Shown: positions 1,256 through 12,811 of the stretch, in pieces
How the letters are laid out: each line of letters opens with the position of its first letter
Numbering within the stretch: the stretch's first letter is position 1
IMG/VR virus record: IMGVR_UViG_2778261572_000006
Coordinates: 1-12,811 of that record
Origin: a virus
Taxonomy: Duplodnaviria > Heunggongvirae > Uroviricota > Caudoviricetes
Strand: one strand, 5' to 3'
DNA length: 12,811 nucleotides
The notes under the pieces: model-generated
Database searches by the model: none
Told to the model about the DNA's origin: nothing
What the model saw: only the letters and a program-made list of their open reading frames with translations
Translations under genes and position numbers: made by a program

Positions 1256-2041
1256 ATGTTCAGTGATAATGTGACTAATGCGTGGTGGTTTATCTCTTTG
1301 TATCTATTTTTATTAATAGCATTAACATTTATTACCTTTGGTAAAAGTAATCTTATGAGGTTTATTGCACATTATTTCAATTTTGAGTATTCAGACAGAA
1401 AGTTAAAAATGCTCGACAAAAAATGGCGCGACATTCAACTATTTAAAATAATTAACGGAATCAATGTATCAGGCATCGAAGATGTGAGAATGATACAGCA
1501 GGGGCTGATTGATGGAAAACTAAAAACATCGTATTTTTTTCTTACTCGCTTCTGGGGTGACATAACAAAACCACCACACATAATTAAAACAATAATTGTA
1601 ATTCTGTCCAGCATTATTTATATTCTCTTCGCATGTTATATACACAACAAACAATCCGCTATAGTAAGAGATGCCATAGGCATACCATATAAAAAGATGA
1701 TGTACTATGTTTATAGTGACAAAGTTCTTTTATCCTTCAACAATAAAACAGTTGAATTCAATAAAACTTATAGCCTTGCCGATTGCAAGAGGCTACGAAA
1801 CGTATTTATAAAAGACACACTTCCTGAGATCGCCTGCAATAAGCTCTTACAGCTAAACGAGGAGGACTCGGAATGGTTAAGTCAGGAGATTAAAGATAAT
1901 AACAGCCAAAAAAAAGCATTATTAATAATATCCCTCATCTATTTCATTTCAGGTCTGGTTATATTCCTGTCATATACAAAATTCCTTTACGCCAATAAGA
2001 AGGTTGTAGAATACAAAGCATCAAATAAAAATCACTCATAA
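1256..2041 (+). CDS. AT-rich predicted integral membrane protein (three hydrophobic segments), function unknown; moron at the position of P2 orf30 (between S and V)
   Basis: A 261-codon ORF with a GAGGAG RBS 6 nt upstream. Hydrophobic stretches WWFISLYLFLLIALTFITF, IIKTIIVILSSIIYILFACYI and ALLIISLIYFISGLVIFLSY. Codon usage is very AT-rich (many AAA/AAT/ATT/TTA), unlike the flanking P2 genes. It is followed by a hairpin terminator. Confidence 0.6.
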   Translation: MFSDNVTNAWWFISLYLFLLIALTFITFGKSNLMRFIAHYFNFEYSDRKLKMLDKKWRDIQLFKIINGINVSGIEDVRMIQQGLIDGKLKTSYFFLTRFWGDITKPPHIIKTIIVILSSIIYILFACYIHNKQSAIVRDAIGIPYKKMMYYVYSDKVLLSFNNKTVEFNKTYSLADCKRLRNVFIKDTLPEIACNKLLQLNEEDSEWLSQEIKDNNSQKKALLIISLIYFISGLVIFLSYTKFLYANKKVVEYKASNKNHS

Positions 2042-3769: not shown

Positions 3770-5542
3770 ATGACCATCACCACAGACACCACTCTTTTAC
3801 ACGACCCGCGTCGTCAGGCGGCGCTGCTGTACTGGCAGGGATTTTCCGTGCCGCAGATTGCCACCATGTTGCAGATGAAACGCCCGACGGTGCAGAGCTG
3901 GAAACAGCGCGACGGCTGGGACAGCGTTGCCCCCATCAGCCGTGTCGAAATGAGTCTGGAAGCGCGGCTGACCCAGCTCATCATCAAACCGCAGAAAACC
4001 GGCGGTGACTTCAAGGAAATTGACCTGCTCGGACGCCAGATTGAACGACTGGCACGGGTCAACCGCTACAGCCAGACCGGCAACGAGGCAGACCTTAATC
4101 CGAACGTCGCTAACCGCAACAAAGGCGGGCGGCGCAAACCGAAAAAGAATTTTTTCAGTGACGAGGCCATCGAAAAGCTGGAGCAGATTTTCTTTGAGCA
4201 GTCTTTCGAATATCAGTTGCACTGGTATCGCGCCGGGCTTGAGCACCGCATCCGCGATATCCTGAAATCCCGCCAGATTGGCGCGACGTTTTATTTTTCC
4301 CGCGAGGCGCTGCTGCGCGCCCTGAAAACCGGTCATAACCAGATTTTTCTGTCGGCCAGTAAAACGCAGGCGTATGTGTTCCGCGAATACATCATCGCCT
4401 TTGCCCGGCTGGTTGACGTTGACCTGACCGGTGACCCAATTGTCCTGGGCAATAACGGCGCAAAACTGATTTTTCTCGGCACCAACTCCAACACCGCGCA
4501 GAGCCATAACGGCGACCTGTACGTCGACGAGATTTTCTGGATCCCGAATTTTCAGGTGCTCCGTAAGGTGGCATCAGGTATGGCCTCACAGAGTCACCTG
4601 CGCTCGACCTATTTCTCCACCCCGTCCACGCTGGCGCACGACGCCTACCCGTTCTGGTCCGGTGAACTGTTTAACCGGGGACGCGCCAGCGCCGCCGAAC
4701 GCGTGGAAATCGACGTCAGTCATAACGCCCTTGCCGGTGGGCTTCTCTGTGCGGACGGCCAGTGGCGGCAGATTGTCACCATTGAGGACGCCCTGAAAGG
4801 CGGCTGCACATTGTTCGACATTGAGCAGCTTAAACGCGAAAACAGCGCCGACGATTTTAAAAACCTGTTCATGTGTGAATTTGTTGACGACAAGGCGTCG
4901 GTGTTCCCGTTCGAGGAGCTGCAACGCTGCATGGTCGACACGCTGGAAGAATGGGAAGACTATGCGCCGTTTGCCGCGAATCCGTTCGGCTCCCGCCCGG
5001 TATGGATTGGTTACGACCCGTCACACCGTGGCGACAGCGCCGGATGCGTGGTGCTGGCACCGCCGGTGGTGGCCGGTGGCAAATTCAGAATACTTGAGCG
5101 TCACCAGTGGAAAGGCATGGACTTTGCCACTCAGGCGGAATCCATCCGCAAACTCACCGAAAAATACAACGTCGAATACATCGGTATTGATGCCACCGGC
5201 CTCGGTGTCGGCGTGTTCCAGCTCGTGCGCTCGTTCTATCCCGCCGCGCGCGATATCCGCTACACACCGGAAATGAAAACCGCAATGGTGCTCAAGGCAA
5301 AAGACGTTATCCGCCGTGGCTGTCTGGAATATGACGTCAGCGCCACCGACATCACCAGCTCGTTTATGGCTATCCGCAAGACCATGACCAGCAGCGGACG
5401 CAGCGCCACCTATGAGGCCAGCCGCAGCGAGGAAGCCAGCCACGCCGACCTCGCCTGGGCGACCATGCACGCCCTGTTAAATGAGCCACTCACCGCCGGT
5501 ATCAGCACCCCACTGACATCCACCATTCTGGAGTTTTACTGA
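3770..5542 (+). CDS. P: Terminase large (ATPase) subunit P (P2 gpP)
   Basis: Product MTITTDTTLLHDPRRQAALLYWQGFSVPQIATMLQMKRPT... (590 aa) matches remembered P2 gpP. A GAGG RBS precedes the ATG at 3770, and the stop overlaps the Q start by 1 nt. The ORF-track start at 3740 is an upstream extension. Confidence 0.9.
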   Translation: MTITTDTTLLHDPRRQAALLYWQGFSVPQIATMLQMKRPTVQSWKQRDGWDSVAPISRVEMSLEARLTQLIIKPQKTGGDFKEIDLLGRQIERLARVNRYSQTGNEADLNPNVANRNKGGRRKPKKNFFSDEAIEKLEQIFFEQSFEYQLHWYRAGLEHRIRDILKSRQIGATFYFSREALLRALKTGHNQIFLSASKTQAYVFREYIIAFARLVDVDLTGDPIVLGNNGAKLIFLGTNSNTAQSHNGDLYVDEIFWIPNFQVLRKVASGMASQSHLRSTYFSTPSTLAHDAYPFWSGELFNRGRASAAERVEIDVSHNALAGGLLCADGQWRQIVTIEDALKGGCTLFDIEQLKRENSADDFKNLFMCEFVDDKASVFPFEELQRCMVDTLEEWEDYAPFAANPFGSRPVWIGYDPSHRGDSAGCVVLAPPVVAGGKFRILERHQWKGMDFATQAESIRKLTEKYNVEYIGIDATGLGVGVFQLVRSFYPAARDIRYTPEMKTAMVLKAKDVIRRGCLEYDVSATDITSSFMAIRKTMTSSGRSATYEASRSEEASHADLAWATMHALLNEPLTAGISTPLTSTILEFY

Positions 5543-6576
5543 TGAGCAAGAAAAAAGGGAAAACACCGCAACCTGCGGCAAAAACAATGACCGCCAGCGC
5601 CCCGAAAATGGAGGCATTCACCTTTGGTGAGCCGGTGCCGGTACTCGACCGCCGTGACATTCTGGATTACGTCGAGTGCATCAGTAACGGCAGATGGTAT
5701 GAGCCGCCGGTCAGCTTTACCGGTCTGGCGAAAAGCCTGCGTGCTGCCGTGCATCACAGCTCGCCGATTTACGTCAAACGCAATATTCTGGCCTCGACAT
5801 TTATCCCGCATCCGTGGCTTTCCCAGCAGGATTTCAGCCGCTTTGTGCTGGATTTTCTGGTGTTCGGTAATGCGTTTCTGGAAAAGCGTTACAGCACCAC
5901 CGGTAAGGTCATCAGACTGGAAACCTCACCGGCAAAATATACCCGCCGTGGCGTGGAGGAGGATGTTTACTGGTGGGTGCCGTCCTTCAACGAGCCGACA
6001 GCCTTCGCGCCCGGCTCCGTGTTTCACCTGCTGGAGCCGGATATCAATCAGGAGCTGTACGGCCTGCCGGAATATCTCAGCGCCCTTAACTCTGCCTGGC
6101 TGAATGAGTCGGCCACGCTGTTCCGCCGCAAGTATTACGAAAACGGCGCACATGCCGGATACATCATGTACGTCACCGATGCCGTGCAGGATCGCAACGA
6201 TATCGAAATGCTTCGCGAAAACATGGTGAAATCGAAAGGCCGCAACAACTTTAAAAACCTGTTTCTCTATGCCCCGCAGGGAAAAGCCGACGGCATTAAA
6301 ATTATCCCGCTCAGTGAAGTGGCGACGAAGGACGATTTTTTTAATATCAAAAAAGCCAGTGCCGCAGACCTGCTGGACGCGCACCGCATCCCCTTTCAGT
6401 TGATGGGCGGCAAACCGGAGAACGTCGGGTCGCTGGGCGATATTGAGAAAGTAGCAAAGGTCTTTGTCCGCAATGAGCTTATCCCGTTACAGGACAGGAT
6501 CCGCGAGATAAACGGCTGGCTCGGTCAGGAGGTCATCCGATTTAAAAACTACTCACTGGACACTGACAACGGCTGA
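5542..6576 (+). CDS. Q: Portal protein Q (P2 gpQ)
   Basis: The 344-aa product MSKKKGKTPQPAAKTMTASAPKMEAFTFGEPVPVLDRRDILDYVECISNGRWYEPP... matches remembered P2 gpQ. It is translationally coupled to P and followed by a terminator and the cos site, as in P2. Confidence 0.9.
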   Translation: MSKKKGKTPQPAAKTMTASAPKMEAFTFGEPVPVLDRRDILDYVECISNGRWYEPPVSFTGLAKSLRAAVHHSSPIYVKRNILASTFIPHPWLSQQDFSRFVLDFLVFGNAFLEKRYSTTGKVIRLETSPAKYTRRGVEEDVYWWVPSFNEPTAFAPGSVFHLLEPDINQELYGLPEYLSALNSAWLNESATLFRRKYYENGAHAGYIMYVTDAVQDRNDIEMLRENMVKSKGRNNFKNLFLYAPQGKADGIKIIPLSEVATKDDFFNIKKASAADLLDAHRIPFQLMGGKPENVGSLGDIEKVAKVFVRNELIPLQDRIREINGWLGQEVIRFKNYSLDTDNG

Positions 6577-6765: not shown

Positions 6766-6991
6766 GCCCGCTTCATGGGTCGGTTTTGATGCAATTCCAA
6801 AAGCCGTCCTAACTCTCTTAGGCTAAATGTCCAACGAGAAAATAGTTCTTTGAATGTGAATGCATTTTAATGCAGAGTTATGCCCAGCATTTTTGTACAC
6901 TTCGATGTATCAAATGCGCTGCAAACGATCAAATATGGATGTTTTATCAAGCATCCCCCAAAAGATATTTACATCATCCCATGAGGTTAAG

Positions 6992-8065
6992 ATGGATAAC
7001 AAAATCGTAGAAATTGAGACAAATAAGCTTGATTTTGACCCTAAAAACCCACGTTTCTTTCGTCTCAATGATGCCAGTAACGCTGCAACAGTCATTGAGG
7101 AAATGTTAGATGACGAAAGTGTCCACGATCTAATGCTATCAATCGGTCAGCAAGGTTACTTTCCTGGAGAACCTTTATTGGCAGTAAAAAGCAATGGAAA
7201 CTACATCGTGGTTGAGGGAAACAGACGCTTAGCTGCTGTAAAGTTGCTCAATGGAGATCTGCTTCCTCCAAAAAGAAAACTTAAAGGTGTGCAAGAAATC
7301 ATTGATGATACTACCAATAAACCTAAGAAGCTTCCCTGCATCATTTATGAAAACCGAGAGGATGTACTGAGATATATCGGTTATCGTCATATAACTGGGG
7401 TCAAAGAATGGGACTCATTATCTAAAGCCAAATACCTTAAAGAGTTATGTGATACTTTTTATTCACATGAGCCTAAAGAGATAGTATTAAAAAATCTGGC
7501 TCGTGAGATTGGGAGTAAACCACATTATGTTGCAACACTTCTCACTGCACTGAACTTATATGAAGTCGCGCATGACCATGAGTTTTTTAATTTACCCATG
7601 AAGGCTTCTGACGTGGAATTTTCATATATAACCACAGCTTTGGGATATTCAAAAATCACAAACTGGTTAGGTCTACAGGATAAAAAGGATTTTTTAGACC
7701 CAAATTTAAATGAAGAAAACCTTAAGCGTTTATTCTCTTGGTTTTTTGTGCCTGACCAACAAGGTAGAACCATCATCGGTGAGTCTCGAAGAATAAAAGA
7801 TATTGCAGCAGTGGTTGAGAAACCCGAAGCAATTGAAATTCTCATGAAAAGTTCAAACTTGGATGAAGCATATCTATATACCAGCGGAGAAAGAGAAGCA
7901 TTAGATAAAGCACTAAACGCAGCTAGTGTTAAATTAAGAGTAGTTTGGGATATGCTACTTAAAGCTAAAGAATTAACATTAGAGCATGAAGAGGCTGCAT
8001 CTGAAATTTTTGAGATGTCAAAAAATATTAGAAATCAGATCAGAAGCAAAAGGGAGGATGATTGA
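6992..8065 (+). CDS. ParB/Srx N-terminal-domain protein (ParB-like NTPase/nuclease-type domain), 357 aa; candidate defence-module component
   Basis: ATG at 6992 is preceded by GAGGT 6 nt upstream. Motifs KLDFDPKNPRF and YIVVEGNRRLAAVKLL fit the ParB N-terminal-domain pattern (xPNPxQPR ... GERRxRAA-type arginine box). Codon usage is AT-rich. The ORF-track start at 6860 adds 44 non-conserved-looking codons and is treated as leader. Confidence 0.6.
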   Translation: MDNKIVEIETNKLDFDPKNPRFFRLNDASNAATVIEEMLDDESVHDLMLSIGQQGYFPGEPLLAVKSNGNYIVVEGNRRLAAVKLLNGDLLPPKRKLKGVQEIIDDTTNKPKKLPCIIYENREDVLRYIGYRHITGVKEWDSLSKAKYLKELCDTFYSHEPKEIVLKNLAREIGSKPHYVATLLTALNLYEVAHDHEFFNLPMKASDVEFSYITTALGYSKITNWLGLQDKKDFLDPNLNEENLKRLFSWFFVPDQQGRTIIGESRRIKDIAAVVEKPEAIEILMKSSNLDEAYLYTSGEREALDKALNAASVKLRVVWDMLLKAKELTLEHEEAASEIFEMSKNIRNQIRSKREDD

Positions 8066-8069
8066 GATT

Positions 8070-9095
8070 ATGATTACAAATCTTGATTCAATGCCTTCTA
8101 ATGAGCCTTATTTATGGGCTGATTATATTGAGATATTGGCCTTAACTAATATCGACAGGTCATTCAGTCGAGGAGACCTATATAGCACACTGCAAGCTCA
8201 ACCCGAAGCAGTACTAGCTGAAACAGATGAAGCAGAAGAAGAGGGCGTTTATGATGTTGATGATGAAAATGATGCGCCTGTACGCAAGAGAACAAAACGA
8301 AGTGTTAGTCGAGCATATACTGACAGAAAGTGGAGCTATGCGATAGGCTTCATACGACAACGCATTGATTTATTTGGGGATAGTTACCCTTTTACTTTAT
8401 CAGAAGACAACGATACTGTAGAGTTACGTGATATATCAGAAAAGCCACTGGAACATTTAGAAAGACTATATTTAGCTTTACTAATCTGTGCTAACATAAA
8501 ATATGTCAACATAATGAGCAGAAGAGAGATAACGCGCAGTTTTGAACTAATTAGTTTACCTATTTTTGAAAGCCTAATGCCTAGCGGTAGCATAATAAAA
8601 GCATGCTGGGCTTCTGGTGGTCAAGCGGCCCCTTACACTGGAACTCTATATAATAAATTTAAGAGTATTGCTTCCGATATCCGTTGCACAGCGAACTTCA
8701 AAGAACGAGATTTCAGTCGAGGAAATAGTGGTGACGGAGGCCTTGACATAATTGCCTGGCATCCAATGGGAGATCAACGAGATGCCATCCCTATTTCTTT
8801 TGTTCAGTGTGGCTGTTCTCAAGAAGAGTGGGAAGCGAAGCAGCTTGAGGCCTCACCTGCGATGCTCTACAGTAAATTCCCCGTAGCTCACCGATGGGCA
8901 ACTTATTATTTCTTACCTCAAGATCTACGATGGATAGATGGTGAGTGGGCGCATAAAAATAAGTTAGGCGATGCTATTTTTGTTGATCGCCTAAGATTAA
9001 TCAATTTAACCAGAGCATCTGATAATATTGATCACAGTCAAAATATTAGCTATCTAGATATCATCCTTGATCCTTCCAGCGCGATCGCTGCTTAA
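8070..9095 (+). CDS. Hypothetical protein with a C-terminal Mrr-like PD-(D/E)xK nuclease-type motif, 341 aa; candidate defence effector
   Basis: ATG at 8070 lies 12 nt after GGAGG (8053..8057), which is inside the last codons of the upstream gene; an alternative ATG is at 8058. The motif GDGGLDIIAW ... ISFVQCGC ... EEWEAK resembles the Mrr catalytic core GDGG[IV]D ... QxK, from memory. An acidic stretch (ETDEAEEEGVYDVDDENDAP) is followed by a basic patch (VRKRTKRSVSR). AT-rich. Confidence 0.55.
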   Translation: MITNLDSMPSNEPYLWADYIEILALTNIDRSFSRGDLYSTLQAQPEAVLAETDEAEEEGVYDVDDENDAPVRKRTKRSVSRAYTDRKWSYAIGFIRQRIDLFGDSYPFTLSEDNDTVELRDISEKPLEHLERLYLALLICANIKYVNIMSRREITRSFELISLPIFESLMPSGSIIKACWASGGQAAPYTGTLYNKFKSIASDIRCTANFKERDFSRGNSGDGGLDIIAWHPMGDQRDAIPISFVQCGCSQEEWEAKQLEASPAMLYSKFPVAHRWATYYFLPQDLRWIDGEWAHKNKLGDAIFVDRLRLINLTRASDNIDHSQNISYLDIILDPSSAIAA

Positions 9096-10030
9096 TCCCA
9101 TAAATCTGGAAGGTTTCTAGCAACCGCCTCAAACAATGGAGGCGGTACTGCATTACCTACCACAGTATATTTCATATTAATAGAAGCCCGTTCAGTTTCT
9201 GGGAAAATTAAATCCCCAAAACCTTGTAAAATAGCAGCCTCTCGATAGCTAAACCTACGAGCTGGTGCATCCGAAGTAAATTGCCACTTATCAGGTCCCA
9301 ATTTTTCTAATGTTGGACTTATTGGATGTAGAGGCATATGTCTAGGATTTGCAACAATTGTTTTAGATATCTGATCCCAATCTTGCCTACGGTTTCGCGA
9401 TAGATAATACCAATGAAAATCGGCGTCATAAAACTCGCCAACAGGCCAAACAGGCATATGCCCAATAGCATCACGAATTGTGGAATATGGTGTCAAACCA
9501 TCACCATGTGTTGGTTTTGGAAATTTGTATGTAATACCGTAGTCCTTTCGTATTCCTACGATAAAGATTCGCTTCCTATCTTGGGATACCCCATAATGGG
9601 ACGCATTCAGAATTTGCGAGCTTACTGTATAACCTGCTTCTTCGAAAACTTTGAATTGATCCTTTAATAAATGCTCAAAGTTACGCCTTACCATACCAGA
9701 GACATTCTCTACAATGAATGCTTTTGGCTTAATTTTACTCAAAGCACGGGCAAACTCTAAATATAGTGTATTAATCTTTCTATCTGCCTTCCTTGCCCCA
9801 CCTTGACTAAATCCTTGGCAAGGATAGCATCCGATGAGCAACTCAGCAGAAGGGAACGACTGGAGCCCTGAGATATCGCCCAAAATGTAGTCAGTTTCAG
9901 GATGGTTTTCTAAGTAAACGTCCCTTGCGTAAGGCAAAATATCATTTGCCATAAGCACATTGAAACCTGCGTTCAAAACTCCCGCATCAGAACCACCACA
10001 TCCAGAAAAAAGTGAAACTACAGTTGGCAT
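9092..10030 (-). CDS. DNA (cytosine-5)-methyltransferase, 312 aa
   Basis: Canonical C5-MTase motifs in order: SLFSGCGG (motif I, FxGxG), GCYPCQGFS (motif IV, PCQ catalytic Cys), ENV (motif VI), QDRKRIFIVG (motif VIII), then a ~100-aa variable region and RRFSYREAAILQGF ... VGNAVPPPLFEAV (motifs IX/X). An AGGAGG RBS lies 6 nt before the ATG at 10030. Its stop codon overlaps the stop of the convergent gene ending at 9095. Confidence 0.85.
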   Translation of the reverse strand: MPTVVSLFSGCGGSDAGVLNAGFNVLMANDILPYARDVYLENHPETDYILGDISGLQSFPSAELLIGCYPCQGFSQGGARKADRKINTLYLEFARALSKIKPKAFIVENVSGMVRRNFEHLLKDQFKVFEEAGYTVSSQILNASHYGVSQDRKRIFIVGIRKDYGITYKFPKPTHGDGLTPYSTIRDAIGHMPVWPVGEFYDADFHWYYLSRNRRQDWDQISKTIVANPRHMPLHPISPTLEKLGPDKWQFTSDAPARRFSYREAAILQGFGDLIFPETERASINMKYTVVGNAVPPPLFEAVARNLPDLWD

Positions 10031-10272: not shown

Positions 10273-10491
10273 CTATCGTCTGCGTTGTGGTGGCGCAACT
10301 CTGGACTGACCGATATGGTTAAACCGCCCGTAATTATCCCGGACTATTTCGGCACACCCGACCAGCTCATCGGGCGTCAGATTTTCGTTGACCATAATCC
10401 GCTGTAAACGCTGAACAATAGCCATCAGCTTGATATTTTTAGTTTTATGGTGCGGTATCTCGCCTGGTATTCTGTGCATTATCCAAGCCAC
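10273..10491 (-). CDS. Small hypothetical ORF (50-72 codons depending on start), uncertain
   Basis: An ORF in the interval between the DUF3850-like gene and the methyltransferase. There is no convincing RBS for any of the three in-frame ATGs (10491, 10479, 10425), and it overlaps the 3' end of the upstream gene. Kept only as a possibility. Confidence 0.25.
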   Translation of the reverse strand: MAWIMHRIPGEIPHHKTKNIKLMAIVQRLQRIMVNENLTPDELVGCAEIVRDNYGRFNHIGQSRVAPPQRRR

Positions 10492-10921
10492 CCGTTTTGC
10501 TGTGCACGCTCCATCTGTTCATCTGAATAGTTCCATGCTCCATCCGTGGCAACCATTGCCCCGCCAGACATCCCCGTCTCTGGTTCATACATAACAGCAA
10601 GGCCGAGCTGATGCATAATTTCATGATTAATTCTGAATACCAAGCCACGCTCACTAAGTTCTTTCCAGTTCACAATCTCATATGCGCCTGTATTAAGCAG
10701 CTCAATACTTAGCAAGACATAATCTTCCAGCCAGTCTGACAGGTCAGTAACATCTGTTATCCGGGCTTCAACATTTCGCCCCGTATACACACCCTGCACC
10801 CATTCATACAAAATCAACGTGTCCCCGCGCTCATAATTACGGTCATTTTTCCGGAACTCTGCACGTTTCTTTCCTTCCAGCACAAGGTCGAAATATTTTG
10901 CGTGCAGCTTTACCTCGTGAA
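10479..10921 (-). CDS. DUF3850/ASCH-like (PUA-fold) domain protein, about 147 aa
   Basis: ATG at 10921 is preceded by GGAGTGGA. The N-terminal MAKIHEVKLHAKYFDLVLEGKKRAEFRKNDRNYERGDTLILYE fits the ASCH/DUF3850 pattern (GxKxxExR ... GDxLxL). It lies immediately downstream of gene A on the same strand. The ORF-track start at 10967 overlaps the A stop and is less likely. Confidence 0.55.
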
Positions 10922-10930
10922 TTTTTGCCA

Positions 10931-12673
10931 TTATGTCCACTCCATTACTGTTGAGAATCCCGGCCACTCATCAGCGACCGGATACGTGAATTTTTTCCCG
11001 TCATAATTTACGGTCGCGCCACGCGCCAGCGCCTCAAGCTCCCATCGCTGCGGCCTGATACCGTTCTGAGCAAGGTCAACGCGGATACGGGTAATTTGCG
11101 TTCGTTCCGACCGGGTCAGTCTGGCCGATGGCGCTATTTCATGTGGTTTTAACGGGCTTCCGTTTCTCTGCTGACGATTTGGTGTTCTCAGTTCGTGTTT
11201 TAATGCACCTCTGAGCGCCCTCACGACCTCCGGGTCATTCCATTCGATAACACCGTCATCAACCAGATTAAGCACTGCTGCGGCGTGCTCAGAAGGCGTG
11301 GGAGCCGGTAACGAAGTATCACCACCGGTGAGCTTTCCACAGTTATTGACAGGACTCCGAGGCGCGGCGATGCCGCTTTTTAAAGTCAAAGGCTCAACGA
11401 CCGGAACTTTCGGCACAATGCGCCAGTCCGTCGTTCTGGTGATATGAATATGACGCGCGCCGAGATGCGGCGCGTAAATGCCGACCACTCTCTCGACTTC
11501 TTCCTCGTACTCGTTAACGTCATCCGACGGGCTACGGGCGACCCTGACAGTCTGACAATCGCGCGGGACATTTGCCCCGCCCTGCGCGCTGATATACAAC
11601 GCAAAATCACCACTGTCTGCGGCGGCGCGTGCAGCCTCGACGCGTTCGTCAAACTCATCAGCAATGCTGACGCCGCGAGGCAATTTGCGTAGCTCACGGT
11701 AAGCCCCCATTGTCGGCAGGCCAACCGTTTTAAATTGCGGAATGCGCCACGTTGACGCCCATGCGGTAACAGCCGCGGCAGTATCTTTAAGCGGCTTACC
11801 GGTATCGTTATCGAGCTGACCATCCAGTGCATAGCCGTCGATGTTTTTTGAGATGTATTTCGCGATATATCCCGCAGCACCGCCCCGGTTAAGGTGTTTT
11901 GCCTGAAAACGGTTTCGCGCGGCTCCTCTTTCGTCTCCATCCTCTTTGAGCGCGTAGCGACGCATGATTTCAATAATCTGGTTACGCTGGCGTGGATTAC
12001 AAAAAAGCATCATATGCCAGTGCGGCGTTCCGTCGTGGTGTGGCTCGACGACACGCAAACCGTAGACCTGTAAATCATTATCCTTGAATGCCGTGCGCAT
12101 CAGGCTCCAGATACGGCAGAGATAACGCTGCGCATCCTTTGGATTAAATGCCTCATCGTTCCAGCCGTGATTAAGCTGCACGGTTTTACTTTCGCCTTTT
12201 CCGACCTGACGTGTCGGGTGATACTTTGACGGCGCGGTCAGCGTGATAAACATCCCCACATCACCCTCTGCAGCGGCGTAACGCTCAATACCGGCAATGG
12301 TGTTCATCAGCTCCATCCGGCGAATTTCAGGATTAGAAATACTGCCCATCACCTTACTGATAAGGTCGATGCGCTCGCCGGTTTCCCTGTTTTCAAGGTC
12401 ACACGATTTAAGAAATTCCAGATTTGCCTGGCGGCGCGCACGCACATCACGAATGGCATGTTTACTGGCATAAGGAGAACGGTCTTTATTGACCTCCCCG
12501 ACAGCTATCAGTAACGCTTCATGCCAGCGCATACGCTGGCCTTTAAGCTGATGAGTCCACCACTCATCGTTAAACAGGCGGGCAATGGCAGAATATGCCT
12601 GCCTCGTGGTCATCTGCCCTTTACGGTATTTTTTCCAGTAAAGCGGGGAAATATTGAAAGCACATGCAGCGCC
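10931..12673 (-). pseudogene. A: Replication initiation protein A (P2 gpA, rolling-circle HUH endonuclease), 5'-truncated by an IS10 insertion; about 580 C-terminal codons remain
   Basis: The product contains the HUH-type motif PHWHMMLF and the active-site tyrosine region GYIAKYISKN and ends ...FSTVMEWT, as in remembered P2 gpA. Reading upstream of the first ATG (12613), the frame continues as ...AFNISPLYWKKYRKGQ, which is still gpA-like, up to 12673. There it abuts the IS10 terminus, and an in-frame stop follows 4 codons into the IS. Confidence 0.85.
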
Positions 12674-12719
12674 CTGATGAATCCCCTAATGATTTTGGTA
12701 AAAATCATTAAGTTAAGGT

Positions 12720-12788
12720 GGATACACATCTTGTCATATGATCAAATGGTTTCGCGAAAAATCAATAATCAGACAACAAGATGTGCGA
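12720..12788 (-). ncRNA. IS10 RNA-OUT antisense RNA (pOUT transcript), position inferred
   Basis: Placed purely from remembered IS10 coordinates (RNA-OUT spans about element positions 47-115 and is complementary to the transposase start region). Not independently derivable from this sequence. Confidence 0.35.
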
Positions 12789-12811
12789 ACTCGATATTTT
12801 ACACGACTCTC
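12781..12811 (+). CDS. tnp: IS10 transposase, N-terminal 10 codons (partial; runs off the window)
   Basis: ATGTGCGAACTCGATATTTTACACGACTCT translates to MCELDILHDS, the remembered N-terminus of IS10 transposase. Confidence 0.8.
   Translation, partial: MCELDILHDS

Follow-up and report, generated by a model that had tools for sequence, protein, structure and literature searches.

Related systems and composition of the cassette

Type II restriction-modification (R-M) systems of the HaeIII kind have an M.HaeIII-type methyltransferase, tightly linked convergent restriction and modification genes and, frequently, a Vsr neighbour; Vsr is the usual companion of C5 methyltransferases. The same traits are found in a three-gene cassette, and among its relatives, at positions 6992-10030 of IMG/VR record IMGVR_UViG_2778261572_000006, a P2-like prophage sequence analysed here over its full 12,811 nucleotides (the window). 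The restriction side of the cassette differs from that of HaeIII-type systems, consisting of two proteins without similarity to any Pfam restriction-enzyme family, one of them of the ParB/Srx fold. We estimate a probability of about 0.65 that the cassette is a single three-gene R-M system, carried as cargo in the hotspot between portal gene Q and replication gene A of P2-like prophages. The description that fits best is of an R-M system with a ParB-fold subunit in its restriction enzyme, although our confidence in the specific role of that subunit is lower. The cassette and its upstream region contain the following features:

6800-6991, plus strand: AT-rich region upstream of the gene 1-gene 2 operon, beginning at a shift in composition near 6800
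6992-8065, plus strand: gene 1, 357 amino acids, with a ParB/Srx-fold N-terminal domain; proposed nucleoside triphosphate (NTP)-binding and DNA-binding restriction subunit
8052-8057, plus strand: Shine-Dalgarno-like GGGAGG for gene 2, read from the sequence, within the last codons of gene 1
8070-9095, plus strand: gene 2, 341 amino acids, with an N-terminal winged-helix-like domain and a C-terminal divergent PD-(D/E)xK-like domain; proposed nuclease subunit
9092-10030, minus strand: gene 3, 312 amino acids, C5 cytosine DNA methyltransferase (Pfam DNA_methylase, E 9.9e-62)

NTP-dependent, multi-subunit restriction enzymes paired with 5-methylcytosine methyltransferases are known from LlaJI and BsuMI, which are McrBC-like, and from CglI/NgoAVII. 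Their logic is that of the cassette, with a C5 methyltransferase, an NTPase or DNA-handling subunit and a nuclease subunit, but their NTPase is an AAA+ GTPase or a superfamily 2 helicase, whereas the cassette would use a ParB/Srx fold with predicted NTP use. GmrSD, SspE and Menshen NsnA also resemble it, being anti-phage systems that combine a ParB-superfamily nucleotide-binding domain, a DNA-binding domain and a nuclease (PMC12065111; PMC12373910). These carry a DUF262 DGQQR box with HNH/DUF1524 or other effectors, and sense modified DNA without a cognate methyltransferase; the cassette has an EGNRR box, a PD-(D/E)xK-like partner and a linked methyltransferase. Neither DUF262 nor DUF1524 was matched by the cassette proteins in Pfam.

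P2-like prophages are known to carry a Type II R-M system, EcoT38I. Another, EcoO109I of P4-like elements, sits in a cos-proximal variable locus as the cassette does (PMC9122126), and the Q-A ('tin/old') slot is itself on record as an anti-phage hotspot (PMC9519451; PMC9122126). PD-lambda-5 is likewise prophage-borne and methylation-based and has been called compacted RM+Abi (Vassallo et al. 2022, PMC9519451); it is labelled by its methyltransferase domain and includes a HEPN domain. Residues 1-151 of gene 1 are a close relative of the N-terminal domain of its A protein (PADLOC E 2.5e-24). Membership of PD-lambda-5 was rejected because the A models cover residues 1-151 only and gene 2 matches no PD-lambda-5 model. 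The uncharacterised PADLOC model PDC-M38A aligns to residues 41-327 of gene 1, past the ParB domain (E 6.5e-25), with 285 of its 715 positions covered; mention of PDC-M38 was not found in the literature. The PADLOC scan proposed in the original prediction, a reading of the DNA from sequence alone, thus gave partial matches for gene 1 (PD-Lambda-5_A and PDC-M38A) and none for gene 2.

Conservation of the three genes as a unit

For the survey of linkage, 39 relatives of gene 2 were taken, each from a different species, and the genes around them were scored. In 38 of the 39 species-level loci, gene 2 is immediately preceded by gene 1, so the pair does co-occur elsewhere, as the original prediction had suggested surveying. 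An adjacent orthologous methyltransferase (60-84% identity) is present in 33 loci, convergent and downstream in 32 and upstream in one. In four others, a different HaeIII-like C5 methyltransferase stands 3-4 kb away, past a large, weakly N6-methyltransferase-like protein; a sampled member of this group shares the HaeIII-like recognition segment. Vsr is adjacent in at least nine loci. Enterobacter carries the trio in 186/P2-like prophages, a Pseudomonas peduovirus has it at another place in its genome and, in Methylomonas, it stands in an ordinary chromosomal setting that is not a prophage. Even where gene 2 is only 25-30% identical, it still follows a gene of ParB size and has a C5 methyltransferase in its vicinity; among these deep variants the order and orientation of the methyltransferase vary, co-directional arrangements are found, and Vsr is often present.

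As the linkage survives rearrangement and deep divergence, it points to a functional tie and not to synteny by descent. There is no support for the methyltransferase being a P2 backbone gene unconnected with the pair, since the trio is also found away from phages and, in a Pseudomonas phage, in another slot. The original prediction had delimited a two-gene unit, with the methyltransferase as an optional neighbour; this has to be revised, since the convergent C5 methyltransferase is its third and most conserved member. With a methyltransferase inside the conserved unit, an R-M system is indicated rather than a stand-alone restriction-like pair.

In five loci of Burkholderiales and Rhizobium (L004, L027-L030), a gap of about 3.3 kb separates the pair from a different HaeIII-like C5 methyltransferase. 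In L004 (9373-12507), Vsr directly follows gene 2 and the gap holds a protein of 1044 amino acids with weak N6-methyltransferase matches only. A second system may have been fused here, or the whole may be a larger composite. In a Methylococcaceae metagenome-assembled genome (L041, 5893-7948), the pair lies just 3' of histidine (his) biosynthesis genes and is followed by Uma2, HipA_2 and DUF3037 genes, with no methyltransferase within 7 kb. This pair may be an orphan or decayed copy, or a methyltransferase encoded at another genomic site may protect it.

Evolutionary rates and Escherichia coli populations

The three proteins diverge at different rates: the methyltransferase has a mean identity to its window counterpart of 70%, gene 1 of 51% and gene 2 of 41%. 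Divergence in gene 1 tracks that in gene 2 (r=0.82), while either compared with the methyltransferase gives only 0.44-0.54; these rates fit the usual R-M pattern. In P2-like phages of E. coli, at least three versions of the pair are found, all beside an almost unchanged methyltransferase. In phage 12474II, for example, the methyltransferase is 97.8% identical to that of the window, but genes 1 and 2 are just 32% and 25% identical; its gene layout is that of an O145:H28 prophage. A third version is present in strain PSS-08-2.

The methyltransferase is full length and in one piece in all 140 complete E. coli genomes that have it. Gene 2 has been broken independently by the insertion sequence (IS) elements IS5 and ISKpn26 in E. 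coli, and IS2 is found just upstream of gene 1. Among the E. coli loci examined, the pair is present wherever the methyltransferase is.

The methyltransferase and its predicted target

Gene 3 is convergent with gene 2, their stop codons overlapping by 4 nucleotides. Its product aligns over its full length to M.HaeIII (E 1.6e-48), including the target-recognition segment, which in this comparison reads YLSRNR..W..T.VAN.RH..LHP. On this match, GGCC, or a longer site that includes it, is the probable target. We propose that gene 3 encodes the protective modification enzyme of the cassette.

The distribution of mcrBC bears on the activity of this enzyme. A chimeric query, joining the methyltransferase to K-12-type mcrBC and matching at most one place per genome, was run against 5426 E. 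coli genomes. The methyltransferase is present in 140 of these and mcrBC in 597, and the chimeric query matched 737, exactly the sum of the two. In these counts, uncorrected for shared ancestry, no E. coli genome therefore has both, against 15.4 expected. Since GGm5CC is an RmC site, a known target of McrBC, this lack of overlap suggests that the methyltransferase is active; the pattern is supportive only. E. coli W, the host of coliphage Wphi, is without mcrBC (PMC3032704).

Gene 2 and its coupling to gene 1

The original prediction had described two co-directional genes 4 nucleotides apart, forming one coupled operon, and this description stands, on the coordinates, the GGGAGG at 8052-8057 and the RefSeq annotation. 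The ATG of gene 2 at 8070 is 4 nucleotides past the stop codon of gene 1. RefSeq places the start at an in-frame ATG at 8058, which would give an 8-nucleotide overlap; the genes are coupled whichever start is used. Gene 1 starts at the ATG at 6992, with GAGG before it at 6983-6986, and its TGA stop codon is at 8063-8065. The program-called open reading frame opens at 6860, a start that is unsupported because homologues and RefSeq begin at MDNK, that is, at 6992. With 1624 homologues of gene 1 and 292 of gene 2 (each at E<=1e-3), and 1479 clusters (50% identity) matching the gene 2 profile, neither is a chance reading frame. Fusions of gene 1 to gene 2 were not found among the top 150 profile matches, all of 171-379 amino acids.

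An imperfect palindrome, CTTTGAATGTGAATGCATTTTAATGCAGAG, with the core AATGCATT, lies at 6848-6877, about 115-145 nucleotides upstream of gene 1, and is a possible candidate for an operator of the operon. No promoter-like site was found upstream of gene 1 in a promoter consensus scan, and in a promoter and terminator scan of the cassette such sites were no commoner than in shuffled sequence.

RefSeq labels the gene 2 family 'hypothetical' in every case, and Pfam, NCBIfam and PADLOC have no model for it. In an alignment of 143 representatives of the family, whose median identity to gene 2 of the window is 27%, E159, D222, D226, Q246, C249 and K257 are 96-100% conserved (K257 97%) and C247 92%, while D18, E21, R98, Y134, D306, R307 and R309 are conserved in all. 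D222 and D226 belong to a GDGGxD motif, and Q246, C247 and C249 to QCGCS. D226 and Q246 fall on predicted strands (227-230 and 242-247), in the usual places of the PD and (D/E)xK elements. The position that the lysine would usually occupy is G248; K257 is on the following helix and likely substitutes for the displaced catalytic lysine in the predicted active site.

The motifs singled out in the original prediction (KLDFDPKNPRF and YIVVEGNRRLAAVKLL in gene 1; GDGGLDIIAW, ISFVQCGC and EEWEAK in gene 2) are all present, and their core residues are conserved in homologues. Its description of gene 2 as Mrr-like holds in part: there is a probable nuclease-like fold with Q-x-G in place of (D/E)-x-K, but the likeness to Mrr is only a weak one at fold level. 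Pfam has no match for gene 2 itself, Mrr_cat appearing only at E=0.13 in one of 34 relatives, and a Foldseek search gave nothing significant. The best fold matches are nucleases; a dioxygenase or transferase fold was not found among them. The acidic-then-basic stretch noted before is indeed present, at about residues 45-85. It is an insertion confined to the closest enterobacterial relatives and a lower-confidence region of the structural model (predicted local distance difference test score 59-73).

Gene 1, a ParB/Srx-fold protein

Gene 1 has the GxRR phosphate-binding box in a ParB/Srx N-terminal fold. Several groups of residues are unchanged even in variants of 32-44% identity: D16, N19, P20 and R21; E75, G76, N77, R78 and R79 (EGNRR); the stretch R132-H-I-T-G-x-K-x-W140; G174 and S175; and S265 and R266. 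The N-terminal domain is followed by a helical region matching ParB/KorB DNA-binding domains (IGS at 173-175), and the C-terminus is a helical hairpin (about 300-355). This pattern of invariant residues marks gene 1 as ParB-like, in its DNA-binding region too, and not as a protein of the DUF262/DndB type. The proposed likeness to DUF262, DndB and GmrS proteins is accordingly not upheld: the EGNRR box is that of canonical ParB (GERR) and not DGQQR, there is no DUF262 profile match, and a ParB/KorB-type region follows. Membership of DUF262/GmrSD or DndB was rejected on these grounds.

Gene 1 is also set apart from partition proteins. It scores 30.5 bits against TIGR00180 (cut-off 58.45) and 15.3 bits against Pfam ParB_N (cut-off 26.3), and the LG(K/R)GL ParA-binding motif was not found in its N-terminus, MDNKIVEIETNKLDFD. 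The original prediction had found no partition context, and we agree: a ParA-like open reading frame is present neither in the window nor in related loci, and there is no parS-like repeat array in the window. With both lacking and the curated ParB profiles below cut-off, a partition system was rejected. In a 2025 survey, ParB-fold proteins were found to bind various NTPs, with sequence not predicting the preference (PMC12704722).

Proposed mechanism and alternative explanations

In the mechanism that we propose, the HaeIII-like C5 methyltransferase would mark host and prophage DNA. Genes 1 and 2 would be co-translated and their products would together form a two-protein restriction enzyme. Gene 2 would contribute winged-helix DNA binding and a divergent PD-(D/E)xK-type centre of E159, D226 and Q246, with the lysine moved to K257. 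Gene 1 would most likely bind NTP and DNA and license or position the nuclease on unmethylated DNA, a role parallel to those of the NTPase subunits of McrBC/LlaJI and CglI/NgoAVII and of the DUF262 domain of GmrSD/SspE. Incoming unmethylated phage DNA would be cut and the lysogen protected.

Several observations weigh against an R-M system of this kind. Two of the 39 loci (L036 and L041) are without a methyltransferase nearby. In a further locus (L059, 1110-4820), with a gene 2 of 27% identity, a convergent gene for a 481-amino acid TIR_2-domain protein replaces the methyltransferase, and the C5 methyltransferase upstream is only a fragment; here recombination may have joined the ParB-nuclease pair to an NAD-depleting effector. 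The cassette is not short of GGCC (5 observed, 5.8 expected), and the prophage gives no signal of GGCC avoidance. About 40 independent lineages would be needed for the exclusion of mcrBC to reach P ~0.01. The RHITGxKxW box (R132-W140) appears, by hand comparison with the consensus, to replace the ENLQRE box of ParB, which is required for CTP (cytidine triphosphate) hydrolysis. E. coli W has been called 'restriction minus' because it lacks hsd, mcrBC and mrr genes, a designation made on genomic grounds only (PMC3032704).

A more specific version of the mechanism makes gene 1 a true CTP- or ATP-gated DNA clamp that loads at unmethylated GGCC-containing sites, slides, and delivers or activates the nuclease. 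We advance this tentatively and think it unlikely. It would explain how a near-identical methyltransferase (97.8%) can serve restriction pairs that are just 25-32% identical, because one short-site HaeIII-like enzyme could protect many longer loading sites, and why restriction of small plasmids by carriers such as E. coli W would go unnoticed. If true, this would be the first R-M system driven by a ParB-type switch.

Alternatively, gene 2 alone may be the restriction enzyme of the R-M system, with gene 1 a large controller (C) protein-like regulator that times or represses it. The match of gene 1 to ParB/KorB DNA-binding domains agrees with such a role, as do a match to the KorB structure (ParB relatives such as KorB are known repressors), the usual controller position directly upstream of the nuclease gene and the palindrome upstream of the operon. 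At 357 amino acids, however, gene 1 is far above the size of controller proteins, and the invariance of its NPR, EGNRR and RHITGxKxW motifs down to 32% identity, needless for a simple repressor, argues against it. Gene 1 is moreover better conserved than the nuclease with which it co-varies, and it is retained in all but one of the 39 loci, making the controller role improbable.

It seems more doubtful again that the pair is a stand-alone defence system, either Type IV-like in the manner of GmrSD or abortive, beside a methyltransferase that is an unrelated phage anti-restriction gene. Chance hitch-hiking does not explain a methyltransferase in 33 plus four of the 39 loci, in non-phage settings and in rearranged orders, nor the presence of the pair in every methyltransferase-bearing E. 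coli locus examined. Besides this linkage, a Type IV-like pair is unlikely because an enzyme dependent on 5-methylcytosine, placed beside a 5-methylcytosine methyltransferase, would attack its own host. Least credible, and very improbable in our view, is a non-defence phage module for DNA handling, whether for partition and maintenance or for ParB-assisted DNA modification beyond 5-methylcytosine. ParB-fold proteins are reported to aid DNA-modifying enzymes of phages, and fusions of them to methyltransferases are common (PMC12704722; PMC13229309). Against such a module stand the missing ParA, parS-like repeats and LG(K/R)GL motif and the sub-threshold TIGR00180 score, the nuclease matches of gene 2, the occurrence of the cassette outside mobile elements, and the IS knock-outs of gene 2, with prophage maintenance not apparently affected.

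Prior records and significance of an R-M assignment

The cassette corresponds to orf98-orf96-mth of coliphage Wphi. Its exact proteins (WP_000368931, WP_000570053 and WP_001143634) are listed in Table S5 of Rousset et al. 2022, on the contents of the P2 hotspot, where they are labelled 'hypothetical' plus 'DNA_methylase'; a sister version is given as 'DNA_methylase + hypothetical + ParBc'. Neither protein set was found in the other supplementary files of that study, including the table of evaluated systems. A literature search found no name or functional test for a system of ParB, nuclease and C5 methyltransferase. The original prediction had not recognised the pair as a named system; no named system was indeed found, but the genes themselves had been recorded, in Wphi and in Table S5.

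If the R-M assignment is correct, a large unannotated family (1479 clusters) would supply the nuclease component of a class of restriction enzymes that has gone unrecognised, and its obligate partner would use a ParB/Srx fold. A concrete and testable function would thereby be gained for part of the 'orphan' ParB-CTPase proteins in a 2025 catalogue (PMC12704722). An R-M type would be added to the P2 tin/old hotspot, and new enzymes may follow. Because a GGm5CC-type methyltransferase is incompatible with McrBC, screens in E. coli K-12 strains that retain mcrBC would be biased against the cassette, consistent with its being listed but never tested.

The prophage and the flanks of the cassette

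Outside the cassette, the window encodes the following P2 proteins, assigned with Pfam:

window: baseplate W and V, a fragment of capsid N, scaffold O and terminase P
5542-6576: portal Q
10931-12613, minus strand: replication protein A

The cassette is flanked by P2 portal, terminase and gpO on one side and gpA on the other, which agrees with the tin/old hotspot position assigned to it earlier. The AT-richness reported before is also borne out: GC content is 0.36-0.46 over about 6800-10000, compared with 0.52-0.60 in the P2 backbone, and this AT-rich stretch comprises gene 1, gene 2 and the C5 methyltransferase gene.

This copy of the prophage is defective, yet its cassette is intact. Just the first ~117 of 327 profile positions remain of capsid gene N (about 2113-2683), and this remnant adjoins the C-terminal portion of a tail-completion S-like open reading frame (Phage_tail_S positions 82-148). 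As a result of this junction, the small terminase subunit, head completion, holin, lysis and part of tail completion are absent relative to the intact prophage of SMS-3-5. The latter is collinear with the window only up to 12673, inside replication gene A. The remaining 12674-12811 (…CTGATGAATCCCCTAATGATTTTGGTAAAAATCATTAAG…) looks like an outside end of IS10, in which case an IS element interrupts gpA. In E. coli strains E2 and FXCREC123 (L055 and L056), which carry the cassette, the annotation gives the portal gene upstream of it as a truncated pseudogene, showing that the cassette persists in decaying prophage remnants.

Two other genes in the window were noted. An open reading frame of 261 amino acids at 1256-2041 (plus strand), with a GC content of 0.33 and hydrophobic segments, lies between the V gene and the S remnant, presumably in the slot of P2 orf30. 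Its sole match is phrog_2407, of unknown function, and it may be a further cargo gene. An ASCH/DUF3850 and DUF7415 protein is encoded at 10479-10967 (minus strand), adjoining gpA about 450 nucleotides past the methyltransferase gene; in other species it is outside the conserved trio.

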